A DNA stretch of 64,000 bases, taken from the NCBI GenBank assembly GCA_965279375.1, contig OZ257156.1, positions 4,832,001 through 4,896,000 on the forward strand. Direction: 5' to 3'. The stretch is from Gemmatimonas sp. Its GTDB lineage: Bacteria; Gemmatimonadota; Gemmatimonadetes; Gemmatimonadales; Gemmatimonadaceae. Below the pieces are notes generated by a model. That model saw only the letters and a program-made list of their open reading frames with translations, made no database searches and had not been told where the DNA came from. The position numbers and the translations under genes are program-made. Below are positions 16,559 through 19,912 of the stretch, in pieces; positions within the stretch are counted from its first letter, which is position 1; each line of letters begins with the position of its first letter.

Positions 16559-17635
16559 ATGAAGCAGTCGTCGCCTGAGCCCCAGCCGAACCGCTACACC
16601 GCCATCACCTCCGCCAGCGCCCCGTCGCTCCGCGGCGCATACTCGCCTCCGAGCGAAGTCGCCCCCGCTGCGCTGCAGGAGCTGCGTGACGCAGGATTCG
16701 ATCTGCTCGACACCGTCGCACGTGGCGGATTTGGCGTGGTGTATCGCGCTAGAGAACGCGCACTCGAGCGTGATGTCGCGATCAAGCTGATCGATCATCA
16801 GTCGTCGCAGCGAGCGGGCGCACCGCAACCGATGCAGGAGATCGCGTCGCTCTCGGCGCTGCGCCATCCGAACGTCGTGCCGTTGTATGGCTCGGGCATC
16901 CTGCAGGGTGGCATCGCATATCTGGTGATGCCGTGGATCGACGGGAGTTCGCTGCGGGCACGTCTCGCGCGCGATGTGCAACTCCCGGTCGAGACGGTGC
17001 TGCGCATCGGGATCGAACTGGCCGATGCGCTGGCCGCATTTCACGCGCGCGGTCTCGTGCATCGCGATGTGAAGCCCGAGAATGTCTTGCTCGACGGCGA
17101 ACGCGCGATCCTCATCGACATGGGGCTGGTGTGCGCGAAGCGCGACGCGTTGCCACCGGACGCAGAGGCGGAGCCCTTGATCGGCACCCCGAGCTACATG
17201 AGCCCCGAACAGTGGACGCCGGGCGGTGCCATTGATGGTCGCGTCGACGTGTATGGACTCGGCTGCCTGCTCTACGAATTGCTGACGGGCGCGCTGCGAC
17301 ACGAGCGCAATCCGCTCCGCTCGCGCGCGAAGAACCCGTTCGTGTGGACGGAGAGCGCGCATGCCTCCGATCTGCTGTCGCCTCCGCAGGGCGATCCGTG
17401 GCGCACGCGGCCCAGCCTGCGGCGGCGGCGTCCCGACGCGCCAGTTTCACTCGAGCGCCTACTCTACCGCGCGCTCGATCCGGACCCGGCCAAACGCCTC
17501 TCGTCGGCGCCGGAGTTCAAGCAGGAACTGGAGGCCGTACAGCGCACATTCCTTCGCGCGCCCACCCCGCTGCGCGGCCTGCGCGCACTGCTGCAGGCCG
17601 CGACCAGCATCGGACGTACGGCAGCGCAGGATTAA
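16559..17635 (+). CDS. Eukaryotic-like Ser/Thr protein kinase (stand-alone kinase domain)
   Basis: RGGFGVVY, VAIK, HRDVKPEN, DMG, GTPSYMSPEQ, DVYGLGCLLYELLTG. Alternative start at 16520. Confidence 0.9.
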   Translation: MKQSSPEPQPNRYTAITSASAPSLRGAYSPPSEVAPAALQELRDAGFDLLDTVARGGFGVVYRARERALERDVAIKLIDHQSSQRAGAPQPMQEIASLSALRHPNVVPLYGSGILQGGIAYLVMPWIDGSSLRARLARDVQLPVETVLRIGIELADALAAFHARGLVHRDVKPENVLLDGERAILIDMGLVCAKRDALPPDAEAEPLIGTPSYMSPEQWTPGGAIDGRVDVYGLGCLLYELLTGALRHERNPLRSRAKNPFVWTESAHASDLLSPPQGDPWRTRPSLRRRRPDAPVSLERLLYRALDPDPAKRLSSAPEFKQELEAVQRTFLRAPTPLRGLRALLQAATSIGRTAAQD

Positions 17636-18693
17636 GTCGCTGCCGAGCCCACCGAGTCCCCCACGAGCGGCATCACCTGCTCGGCGAATCGCTCCATCTC
17701 TTCCAGCTGCGGGCTGCTCTGCAGCAACAGCAGGTTGATACCCACCGATTCCAGTTCTCGCACGCGATCGGCGACTTGCTCAGGCGTGCCGACCAATCCC
17801 GCGCGCAAGCCGCGGTTCGAGACCGAGTAGTCCTGCAGCGACAGCCGCTGGTCGAGCTGCGTGTTGCCGATCCAGTCCTGATAGTTGGCGTAGCCCGGTG
17901 ATCCAGGCTGCACGTTGGTGATGCGGTCGAGCTCGCGCTTGGCTTCCGCCTCCGTGTCGCGCACGATCGCGTAGGCCGCCATGCCGAACTGCATCGGGCG
18001 CAGACCCGCGCGTTCGCGACGCGCGCGCATGTCCGCAATCTTCGGCGCAATGCGCTCGGCCGGATCGCCGTGCATCACATACGAATCGCACTGCGTGCTG
18101 ATAAGCGTCTTGGCCGCGTCCGACTCGCCTCCCGCGTACAGCACCGGATGCGGTCGCGACCAGCTGGATACCGGCTTGGGTTCGACGATCAACTCGTCCA
18201 CCTGGTAGTACGCACCCTGATAGCTGAACGACGGCTCGCGCCACGCGCCATGGAGCACGTCGAGCCATTCGGCGGTGCGCGCATAGCGGTTGTCGTGCTC
18301 GTCGAACTGCGACCCGTAGCGACGCGCTTCGTCCTTCCACCACGACGACACCACGTTGAGCGACAGGCGGCCGTTGCTGATCAGGTCGATGTTGGCCGCT
18401 TGCTTGGCCAGCGTGGCTGGATGATGAAACGTGGGGCGCACCGCCACCATCAACTCGAGACGCGACGTGACGGCGGCCAAGGCGGCCGCCGTGGACCACG
18501 CATCGAGCGCTGGCGCCGACACGCCCTTGATGTCGTTCAAGAAGAGTTCGGCGATGAGCGTGAGATCGTAGCCAATCTCCTCACTGCGACGCGCCAGACG
18601 CTGCACGTACGGCCAAGTCGCCTCCATGCCCTCGTCGGGCACATTGCGCAGCCAGCCGCCGAAGATCGGGAGCCAGTAGCCGTAGCGCATCAT
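17632..18693 (-). CDS. LLM-class flavin-dependent monooxygenase (SsuD/SfnG-like)
   Basis: GYWLPIFGGW, LIAELFLND, LELMVAVRP, SNGRLSLNVVSSW, YAGGES, GLVGTPEQVA. Confidence 0.9.
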   Translation of the reverse strand: MMRYGYWLPIFGGWLRNVPDEGMEATWPYVQRLARRSEEIGYDLTLIAELFLNDIKGVSAPALDAWSTAAALAAVTSRLELMVAVRPTFHHPATLAKQAANIDLISNGRLSLNVVSSWWKDEARRYGSQFDEHDNRYARTAEWLDVLHGAWREPSFSYQGAYYQVDELIVEPKPVSSWSRPHPVLYAGGESDAAKTLISTQCDSYVMHGDPAERIAPKIADMRARRERAGLRPMQFGMAAYAIVRDTEAEAKRELDRITNVQPGSPGYANYQDWIGNTQLDQRLSLQDYSVSNRGLRAGLVGTPEQVADRVRELESVGINLLLLQSSPQLEEMERFAEQVMPLVGDSVGSAAT

Positions 18694-19688
18694 CCCGCCG
18701 TCACGAGCGCGCCGACACCCGCCTCCTGCTCCGCCTTCTCGACGCGCGACTGCAGGTAGTCCACCAGCGGCACCCAGGGATCGAAACCGACCACGTTCGG
18801 TGCGTCGGCGACGAAGTTGGACAGCGCGTTGACGTCGTAGAAGTAGTGCTTGCCGTCGCGATCATCCACGAGGAATTCGATGCCGCCCACATCGATGCGC
18901 GCGGCCTTCGAGATGCGCTCCACCTGCGCGATGATCTCCTCCGACGGATGCGCCGCTTCCACACGCATCCCCGACTTGGGTGCGTCGATCGCGCACGCGC
19001 CACCTACCAGCGCGACACCAGACGTCGTCTGGCACGCGTCGGCCGGGCACAGGTCGAACGAATCCTGCGGCGGATAGACGTTGATGGCGTAGAGATACTT
19101 GCCGTTGAGCGTCTCCACGCGGGTGATGTGTCCATTGCGAAGCGGGGCCGCTTCCTGCACGAGCGCCGTGCCGTCCACGCCGAGATCGACCGTGCCTGCA
19201 GCAACGGCGTCGGCGAGCGCTTCGCGTGTCTCGTAGCGCACGATGCCCGCGCCCGATCCACCCACGTTCGCCTTCACCAGCACCGGGAAGCGAAAGCCCT
19301 CGGCGGCATCAAGCGCACGCGACGCACTGTTGATGACCCGCGCCTTGGGGAACGGCAGGCCAAGCTGGCGCAGCAGATCGAGCTGCGTGGCCTTGGAGAG
19401 TTCGAACGTGTACGCATCGGCGCCGTTCACCACGGGGACGCCCAGTCGCTCGAGATGTCGCAACCAGTGCAGCGTGTAGAAGGTGCTCTGCGCATGTCCG
19501 CGCAGATACGCCGACGGGCTGGCGCGATTGAACACCAGCGACCACGGCGTGGAGCGTTCGGCGGGATCGAAGAGATGCGCCGCCGCATCGAGACGCGCAT
19601 ACGGGAGACCGCGGCGATCCAGCTCCGCGAACAATGGGCGGAACCAGTCCGGGTGCTCGTGATAAATGGCAATCGGGAGTGCAGACAT
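18690..19688 (-). CDS. RimK-like ATP-grasp ligase with Cys-rich insert
   Basis: LVFNRASPS, VVNG, SKATQ, VKANVGGSGAGI, LVQE, GGIEF, YDVNALSNF and CPADAC..C motifs. Stop overlaps the LLM start (ATGA). Confidence 0.85.
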   Translation of the reverse strand: MSALPIAIYHEHPDWFRPLFAELDRRGLPYARLDAAAHLFDPAERSTPWSLVFNRASPSAYLRGHAQSTFYTLHWLRHLERLGVPVVNGADAYTFELSKATQLDLLRQLGLPFPKARVINSASRALDAAEGFRFPVLVKANVGGSGAGIVRYETREALADAVAAGTVDLGVDGTALVQEAAPLRNGHITRVETLNGKYLYAINVYPPQDSFDLCPADACQTTSGVALVGGACAIDAPKSGMRVEAAHPSEEIIAQVERISKAARIDVGGIEFLVDDRDGKHYFYDVNALSNFVADAPNVVGFDPWVPLVDYLQSRVEKAEQEAGVGALVTAG

Positions 19689-19725
19689 CCGAACGCTCCA
19701 GCAAAGGGAACGCCGTCCAGACACG

Positions 19726-19754
19726 AAAAAGCCCGGCGACAGAAGCCGCCGGGC
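19726..19754 (-). terminator. Intrinsic terminator in the leader of the ATP-grasp/LLM operon
   Basis: Minus strand GCCCGGCGGC-TTCT-GTCGCCGGGC-TTTTT, about 38 bp upstream of the ATG at 19688. Confidence 0.85.
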
Positions 19755-19757
19755 ATT

Positions 19758-19812
19758 CGCGTTTTAGCTCGTTGTTTTACGTGGCGGCAATAGGCGGCAA
19801 AAGACCACGATC
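19758..19812 (-). promoter_or_regulatory. SAM-II (SAM-alpha)-like riboswitch aptamer
   Basis: Minus strand CGTGG-TCTTTT-GCCGCC-TATTGC-C-GCCACG-TAAAACAACGA-GCTAAAA. It has P1 CGTGG/CCACG, a U-rich L1, UAUUGC, an A-rich linker and GCUAAAA, as in known SAM-II aptamers. Confidence 0.8.
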
Positions 19813-19912
19813 CATCAGTTGTTCCTGCAGACTAGATGCGGGGACAAAAGTGGTCAAGCACTGAGAATATCAAAATTGGGACAGTTTGCTGAGCCGCACC
19901 GGCACTCGGCGA

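Follow-up and report, generated by a model that had tools for sequence, protein, structure and literature searches.

An ATP-grasp/monooxygenase gene pair behind a predicted SAM-II riboswitch in Gemmatimonas sp. as a candidate route from sulfones to thiol amino acids

The 64,000-nucleotide (nt) stretch of Gemmatimonas sp. DNA analyzed here (the window; positions 4832001-4896000 of a 5.31 Mb source genome, one contig, 99.95% complete) carries two overlapping genes, encoding an ATP-grasp protein and a luciferase-like monooxygenase (LLM), behind a leader with the features of an S-adenosylmethionine (SAM)-II riboswitch. We propose a model in which the LLM would cut a sulfone to a sulfinate, methionine sulfone being the probable substrate, and in which the ATP-grasp protein would reduce this sulfinate with the help of ATP and an invariant cysteine pair. 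A role of the pair in sulfur-amino-acid supply is highly probable and a product at the thiol level is likely; ATP-dependent sulfinate reduction by the ATP-grasp protein, as judged from its sequence, has even or slightly better odds. To the full route from methionine sulfone to homocysteine we assign a probability of roughly 45%, the identity of the substrate being its weakest step.

A two-gene operon behind a predicted SAM-II off switch

The pair and its control elements are listed here with their window coordinates.
17632-18693, minus strand: LLM gene, open reading frame (ORF) of 353 amino acids (aa); class C flavin-dependent, 3RAO/8VW6 family; predicted sulfone C-S monooxygenase
18690-19688, minus strand: ATP-grasp gene, ORF of 332 aa; RimK/LysX/ArgX fold; predicted ATP-dependent sulfinate reductase
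19032-19058, minus strand: active-site loop F-D-L-C214-P-A-D-A-C219 of the ATP-grasp protein; C214 aligns to RimK N213
19696-19699, minus strand: ribosome-binding site GGAG, read from sequence, 5' of the ATP-grasp gene
19724-19754, minus strand: intrinsic terminator, 10-bp stem (19754-19731) and U run
19747-19818, minus strand: SAM-II (SAM_alpha, RF00521) aptamer; P1 formed by 19809-19804 with 19785-19780
19829-19834, minus strand: putative -10 element TAGTCT, placed by spacing and relatives; transcript start probably near 19822
19852-19857, minus strand: putative -35 element TTGACC, 17 nt from the -10; TTGAC recurs at the same place in relatives

An ATGA overlap joins the stop region of the ATP-grasp gene, which comes first, to the start of the LLM gene, and because a Ser/Thr-kinase-like gene converges on the latter and ends at 17635, the operon consists of these two genes; a peptidase-like gene lies upstream (both neighbors named by sequence reading). 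Together with the terminator and a SAM-II match that stays below its cut-off, this bears out the initial annotation, which had described a coupled two-gene operon behind a SAM switch. Among the window neighbors no reductase or transporter is co-transcribed with the pair; the only flavin reductase of family PF01613 in the source genome lies ~70 kb away, and a domain search of that genome returned no PF03358.

The leader measures ~135 nt between the promoter and the ATP-grasp gene. A consensus promoter scanner called no promoter, and the sigma70-like elements listed above were placed by their spacing and by comparison with relatives. The aptamer matches RF00521 with 29.4 bits (E 7.5e-5 in a 401-nt search), below the 36-bit gathering cut-off, and a search of the entire window with Rfam at the gathering level gave no matches. 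We consider the match to be real because of compensatory changes in P1 and of a canonical paralog before metY: across 20 aligned copies, P1, P2a and P2b are 100% paired, P1 with two compensatory changes, and the source genome has only two SAM-II copies, one before the ATP-grasp/LLM pair and a canonical one (40.5 bits, 4478130-4478201) before metY-metX, the latter with a terminator-like hairpin that has the same GGCGGC arm. In addition, the window aptamer keeps U10, U11, U21 and U44, which are invariant in the alignment of relatives and are the SAM-contact bases of SAM-II (PMC3303485). Taken together, comparison of sequences supports the aptamer as a SAM-II riboswitch, with SAM binding and repression as its predicted behavior.

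The 5' arm of the terminator, GGCGGC, can pair with GCCGCC of the P1 3' strand and thereby form an antiterminator. In folding calculations on an 80-nt nascent transcript, with pseudoknot and ligand left out, this antiterminator beats P1 (-20.1 versus -11.6 kcal/mol), suggesting a model in which the leader would act as an OFF switch under kinetic control. A terminator-type SAM-II has been predicted for S. meliloti metZ (PMC9373788).

An invariant cysteine pair in the ATP-grasp protein

An AlphaFold2 model of the ATP-grasp protein (62-sequence alignment) reached a predicted local distance difference test score (pLDDT) of 91.9, and its closest fold matches are ArgX (Z 27.5; root-mean-square deviation 2.3 Å, 276 residues), LysX (Z 27.3) and then RimK. 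Conserved K99, K139, Q178, E271, D285 and N287 place it in the ATP-grasp superfamily; against the RimK-family ligase model TIGR00768 it scores 56.7 bits where 143.4 are required, and a protein atlas search with a homolog returned only unnamed or generic ATP-grasp clusters.

Its FNLC/FDLC loop aligns with the FRSN of RimK, of which neither the FRSN sequence nor Asn213 is retained. The motif FDLCPADACQ...GAC (residues 211-220 and 230-232), earlier described as an unusual cysteine cluster, is present as stated, but 'cluster' does not hold, since only Cys214 and Cys219 are invariant. Both are found in all 160 locus orthologs, and among 46 distant representatives C214 is kept in 34 and C219 in 30. 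The third cysteine (GAC) is not universal, 14 of 75 locus orthologs doing without it; a third cysteine lies at most 30 residues after the pair in 119/119 close homologs. By alignment, the conserved feature is a Cys-x4-Cys pair, not a cluster, with the third cysteine optional. An iron-sulfur cluster, considered at one point for this protein, was demoted on the grounds that only two cysteines are invariant.

Five or more of seven putative catalytic residues survive in every one of the 34 representatives that have C214, and 11 of the 12 without it keep four or fewer. Some relatives (P0163, P0189, P0195, P0203, P0231 and P0244) are devoid of the Cys loop and of most metal and substrate residues, and are possibly pseudo-enzymes. 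In RimK, N213 lies at the ATP gamma-phosphate and close to R189, the arginine that positions the acid for phosphorylation (PMC10375531). The equivalent of R189 is kept as R190, and we infer from this alignment that C214 would stand beside the gamma-phosphate; invariant E11, R55, S57, S59 and R63 suggest an amino-acid substrate. Ligation followed by oxygenation, the order favored in the initial annotation, is less well supported, given an invariant cysteine at the RimK Asn213 position that is co-conserved with putative substrate and metal residues, and the ligation step is further weakened by the invariant cysteines of a distant replacement family.

This second ATP-grasp family, 21% identical to the window protein, replaces the window type beside LLMs in Deinococcus, in actinobacterial contigs and in a haloarchaeon (L088:6701-7981, L089:6599-7879, L129, L137, L141, L143 and L211:6001-7233; annotated as D-aspartate or carboxylate-amine ligase). 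A loop cysteine and a C-terminal CxC are each present in 120/120 homologs, and neither occurs in five relatives from unrelated contexts (0/5); the archaeal copy, which has both, sits beside an LLM of the NtaA/DmoA family. When the profiles of the two ATP-grasp families were compared, their Cys loops did not fall into register, so that any equivalence of the loops is putative. Two distant ATP-grasp lineages with thiol pairs beside C-S-cleaving LLMs are predicted by a redox step and are not required by amide ligation.

A monooxygenase with SfnG as its nearest characterized relative

The LLM is a class C flavin monooxygenase (PF00296, 208 bits versus a cut-off of 27.9), and its flavin mononucleotide (FMN)-phosphate motif, H133, Y137 and S191, is invariant in 158 sequences. 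It belongs to one family with the PDB structures 3RAO (E 1e-128) and 8VW6 (E 5e-116). It remains below every NCBIfam cut-off, SfnG being nearest (TIGR04021, 248.1 versus 382.95 bits) and SsuD/MsuD more distant (180 versus 518 bits); SfnG is also the closest characterized LLM (PDB 8T0U, E 2.6e-49). In the openly accessible literature, with subscription journals and supplements (regulon tables) largely uncovered, we found no paper on the ATP-grasp/LLM pair, no function for 3RAO or 8VW6 (3RAO appearing there as search model and structural neighbor) and, among the papers listed on homocysteine sulfinic acid, none that treats a bacterial pathway; this agrees with the earlier view of the pair as uncharacterized. 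The name 'alkanesulfonate monooxygenase' on 8VW6 is the depositor's label.

In SfnG, the dimethyl sulfone (DMSO2) site is formed by W11, Q53, R55, Y60, W121, F267, W285, Y296 and N297, with W121 and N297 as sulfone-oxygen donors, and the enzyme avoids positive charges, binding neutral sulfones (PMC11588060). SfnG W11, W121, H136, Y140 and N297 are kept in the LLM as W7, W118, H133, Y137 and N293 (158/158); F267 is a tyrosine, and the DMSO2 site as a whole is not strictly conserved. Invariant R16, D54, K56 and R294 are gained relative to SfnG (158/158). The MsuD residues W195, R225 and R296, essential in that enzyme (PMC8234197), correspond to H208, A240 and N293 (the last via a two-residue ungapped extension), and the RGGA sulfonate loop of MsuD is missing from the aligned LLM. 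We read the site as a probable sulfone pocket with one wall cleared to admit a charged chain; this would fit methionine sulfone and the MetQ context described below. The basic residues could also serve a sulfonate, and the cut may fall on either side of the sulfur. Single-sequence structure prediction of the LLM reached a pLDDT of 33.

Conservation and control of the pair in relatives

The LLM gene follows the ATP-grasp gene in 76 of 80 Gemmatimonadota loci from GTDB, two of the four exceptions ending at a contig edge. Among 201 genomes of the phylum, a tally that takes in the genome G152, flagged as unpublished, 40 have the close ATP-grasp and 38 the LLM, with the ATP-grasp gene adjacent in all 38; the co-occurrence analysis proposed in the initial annotation, with SAM switches recurring upstream, came out in favor of conserved coupling. 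Sixteen further genomes have a distant ATP-grasp without an LLM of the window type, and 12 of these lone loci (L108-L119, other families of the class) share no common partner gene; in L116 the lone gene comes after an aldehyde-dehydrogenase-like ORF. Starting from the LLM, 80 metagenome loci have the window-type ATP-grasp in 70 cases and a distant 426-aa type in four; 74 thus carry one of the two ATP-grasp types, and the other six have at most 854 nt upstream.

The pair recurs in other phyla, and its leaders across loci are of three kinds: SAM-II, SAM-I and Cys/Met-rich peptides. By pattern search, SAM-II stands upstream in 23 of the 80 GTDB loci, L012 and L027 being added by a looser pattern. 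Another 32 have a leader ORF rich in Cys and Met, which in 29 cases holds five or more of these residues per 10 codons; this density is not attained in any SAM-II locus, and the two devices are nearly mutually exclusive. SAM-I lies above cut-off before the pair in Bacillus (L087, 100.5 bits; gene order LLM, ATP-grasp) and in Deinococcus peraridilitoris (L088, 60.6 bits). Three unrelated sulfur-amino-acid control devices converge on the ATP-grasp/LLM module, which, together with metNIQ neighbors in relatives, supports the SAM control and the sulfur/methionine supply role originally proposed.

The Cys/Met leader ORFs (L019-L081, e.g. L032, L043 and L047; L121, L122, L125, L127, L187 and L204) occupy the position of SAM-II, and in those examined a terminator-like hairpin comes next. 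L087 and L216, taken from a plasmid collection, are as large as chromosomes (5.5 and 2.6 Mb), and their label is probably wrong. A Pediococcus plasmid (L086:4551-8939) carries a T-box, a thioredoxin-fold gene, an IS30-interrupted GltP-like symporter gene and an ATP-grasp gene without LLM; the T-box (69.7 bits, below cut-off) was left unused, its specifier being ambiguous and its position ~3 kb upstream across IS30.

Flanking genes vary among loci. The order metN-metI-[pair]-metQ is found in L191, and met transporter genes lie directly downstream in L195, L162 and L160; an SsuE-like reductase stands beside the pair in L123, L148, L027 and, in part, L124, and a MetE-like gene is divergent from it in L140. 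That no flavin reductase or transporter is adjacent, as had been observed earlier, is true of the window but not of relatives, where SsuE-like and metNIQ genes each accompany the pair in four loci.

Sulfur metabolism of the source genome and of other carriers

The source genome has MetH and MetY-MetX as well as CysK-, CBS- and cystathionine-lyase-like genes (named from translations). PF01077 (nitrite/sulfite reductase) was absent from it in a domain search whose control was found in 11 of 14 genomes, and the only match to the 3'-phosphoadenosine 5'-phosphosulfate reductase family reads as CysD. At 2542621-2546280 (L092) lie cysQ-, cysC- and cysD-like genes, and no cysH or sulfite reductase was found genome-wide; sulfate activation by these genes probably serves sulfation, not assimilation.

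Across the 38 pair-positive genomes, PF01077 occurs in 5, MetY in 8 and neither in 25, and a homocysteine methyltransferase domain in 37. Most carriers could make no use of sulfite from a SAM-repressed pathway, because 33 of the 38 show no domain of sulfite reductase; methanethiol as the end product would lack its usual acceptor, because MetY was not found in 30. Homocysteine or cysteine as the product fits all carriers.

Proposed pathway and alternatives

In the model that we propose, low SAM would allow the antiterminator to form and the ATP-grasp and LLM genes to be transcribed. Using reduced FMN from an unlinked or SsuE-like reductase, the LLM would break a C-S bond in the manner of SfnG and so turn a sulfone into a sulfinate. 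With methionine sulfone, the probable substrate, the products would be homocysteine sulfinate and formaldehyde. Homocysteine sulfinate is, on chemical reasoning, a glutamate isostere, and the ATP-grasp protein would phosphorylate the sulfinate as its relatives phosphorylate the carboxylate of glutamate. Cys214 would attack the phosphorylated sulfinate to give a thiosulfinate, which Cys219, the optional third cysteine and cellular thioredoxin would resolve in a sulfiredoxin-like way to homocysteine. From there, sulfur would reach methionine and SAM via MetH and cysteine by reverse trans-sulfuration. Direct uptake of homocysteine or cysteine sulfinate would explain stand-alone ATP-grasp copies.

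Several observations weigh against this model. In the leader, L1 of the window aptamer is UCUUUUG instead of UGAUUUG, with CU at two conserved GA positions (across relatives these bases drift from GA over CA to CU, the closest relatives having CA or CU), and at 92 nt the full terminator is more stable than the antiterminator (-29.8 versus -21.9 kcal/mol), so that read-through would have to be kinetic. No recognizable leader was found by pattern in 22/80 GTDB loci, with three more too short, and in 59/80 metagenome loci, and an Rfam scan of 20 metagenome loci gave no matches. In the LLM, SfnG Q53, R55, Y60 and Y296 have become A, L, I and S, W285 is not kept, and the invariant R294 beside N293 could bind a sulfonate. 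The absences of sulfite reductase and MetY are not enriched over background (p 0.36 and 0.32); the carrier genomes are related rather than independent and mostly metagenome-assembled, and the MetY search scored eight candidates per genome. Among the neighbors, MetQ, MetI and SsuE assignments mostly lie just below curated cut-offs. A Deinococcus deserti plasmid (L089:4879-6602) has cuyA (cysteate sulfo-lyase) and cuyB (racemase) directly before the pair, both above their NCBIfam cut-offs, and in Spirosoma (L084) the partner LLM of the ATP-grasp has as its nearest structures PDB 7OLF/7OH2, which are named as enzymes of sulfonates; both cases point to sulfonates. Finally, an amidase gene lies between the two genes in one locus (L129) and GNAT genes beside the LLM in L129, L137 and L141, an arrangement that resembles N-acyl protection pathways.

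These last genes would suit a scheme, unlikely on the present evidence, in which ligation comes first: the ATP-grasp protein would acylate the amine of an S-substituted or sulfoxidized methionine or cysteine derivative, the LLM would release a thiol or sulfenate, and a housekeeping peptidase would deacylate it, the cysteines reducing the sulfenate or carrying an acyl thioester. Known members with the RimK/LysX/ArgX fold are amide ligases, CmoJ/YxeK provides a precedent for LLM cleavage of N-acetyl substrates, and the B. subtilis Cmo pathway acetylates, oxidizes, cleaves, reduces and deacetylates, likewise yielding sulfur at the thiol level (PMC10863075), so that a protect-then-cleave logic is real in nature, if by analogy here. 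However, the amidase is confined to that single locus, acylation genes are separate GNATs where they are present at all, and the RimK R203/R211/N213 region is replaced in the ATP-grasp protein; distant ATP-grasp copies without a window-type LLM in 16/201 genomes, and further ones on Pediococcus and Bacillus plasmids, do not fit, and the invariant cysteines of two distant families are left unexplained. If it were nonetheless correct, the pair would be a new variant of Cmo-type salvage. A smaller change to our model, which we hold to be a little less probable again, keeps the reductase chemistry and alters the sulfone or the cut: the LLM would free methanesulfinate, either out of DMSO2 or, along with aspartate semialdehyde, out of methionine sulfone, and reduction by the ATP-grasp protein would turn the methanesulfinate into methanethiol, from which methionine is made. 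SfnG as the closest characterized LLM, small residues in place of those around the methyl group that SfnG cleaves off, a neutral sulfone that requires no transporter and the co-regulation of metY-metX by SAM-II in the source genome would agree with this, whereas the scarcity of MetY (8/38), the probable amino-acid substrate indicated by E11, R55, S57, S59 and R63, and the MetNIQ context speak against it.

Sulfonates as substrates are quite unlikely, as far as the sequences indicate, because most carriers show no sulfite reductase domain and the LLM has no MsuD triad. Here the source of the sulfite freed by the LLM would be cysteate, homocysteate or an amino-sulfonate after ligation, with the ATP-grasp protein either protecting the amine or activating sulfite for thiol-dependent reduction in place of sirohaem sulfite reductase. 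Apart from the D. deserti and Spirosoma loci, the invariant basic residues R16, K56 and R294 favor this possibility, given that SfnG, for neutral sulfones, avoids positive charges (PMC11588060), yet the RGGA loop is absent together with the triad, and plain sulfite release would be useless in the 33 carriers without the reductase domain. Protection of cysteate or taurine followed by desulfonation had been considered and was demoted, sulfite reductase being missing in most carriers and the MsuD residues in the LLM. We also know of no precedent for a single dithiol enzyme that takes sulfite through a six-electron reduction. Least probable, and very unlikely, is that the cysteines bind zinc or an iron-sulfur cluster or sense redox state and that the role of the pair is to produce a small sulfur metabolite instead of salvaging sulfur: the third cysteine within 30 residues in 119/119 close homologs would be in keeping with it, but 14 of 75 locus orthologs are devoid of it, the surroundings of the pair hold no conserved genes for tailoring or export, and SAM off-switches and Cys/Met leaders mark supply genes, not sulfur-consuming ones.

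Implications

To our knowledge, methionine sulfone and free cysteine and homocysteine sulfinates are usually seen as dead ends, only oxidized on to sulfite. We give an even chance to the broader proposal that the ATP-grasp family and the second, convergent CxC family are small-molecule sulfiredoxins which, with an LLM, reverse the oxidation of methionine to its sulfone, so that bacteria without sulfite reductase would regain reduced sulfur. If this is true, reduction would join the reactions of the ATP-grasp superfamily as a new type, and ATP-driven sulfinate repair, hitherto known only from damaged proteins, would extend to free metabolites. A function would also be assigned to 3RAO and 8VW6, both orphan structures at present, as well as to many proteins labeled 'alpha-L-glutamate ligase' or 'D-aspartate ligase', and a reduced-sulfur source to the abundant soil lineages without sulfate assimilation (Gemmatimonadota, and Acidobacteria- and Actinobacteria-like contigs as judged by neighbor genes).

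Comparison with known systems

The window leader has the P1/P2 pseudoknot and the SAM-contact uridines in common with SAM-II (RF00521), and differs from it in the drifted GA of L1 and in a score below gathering. With RimK, LysX and ArgX the ATP-grasp protein shares the fold (Z 25-27.5), the ATP-binding lysines and the R189-equivalent arginine, whereas identity is only 16-22%, the FRSN loop of those ligases is F[DN]LCPADxC here, and no LysW or RpsF-type partner is found near the window gene. SfnG and the LLM have in common the FMN-binding His and Tyr and the sulfone-oxygen donors W121 and N297; SfnG feeds MsuC/MsuD and sulfite, whereas the window LLM is paired with an ATP-grasp protein. 3RAO, which comes from B. 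cereus (PMC11588060), and 8VW6 belong to the same family as the LLM, and the Bacillus ortholog lies behind SAM-I beside an ATP-grasp homolog.

As in the model proposed for the pair, LLM-catalyzed C-S cleavage in the B. subtilis Cmo/Yxe pathway leads back to an amino acid with a thiol and depends on a step of reduction (PMC10863075). In contrast, Cmo/Yxe relies on an LLM of another subfamily (YtnJ-type structures, E ~1e-14 to the window LLM) and on an acetyltransferase, a sulfoxidase and a deacetylase, and has a sulfenate product and no ATP-dependent reduction. Neither a linked acetyltransferase nor a deacetylase is present in the window, and over all loci GNAT genes occur in three and an amidase gene in one.

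The fold of sulfiredoxin differs from ATP-grasp. Its chemistry is the same as that proposed for the ATP-grasp protein: with ATP and Mg it phosphorylates a sulfinate, which an enzyme cysteine attacks to give a thiosulfinate that is resolved by thiols (PMC12093155). The substrate of sulfiredoxin, however, is a protein Cys-SO2H, whereas that of the ATP-grasp protein would be a free metabolite.

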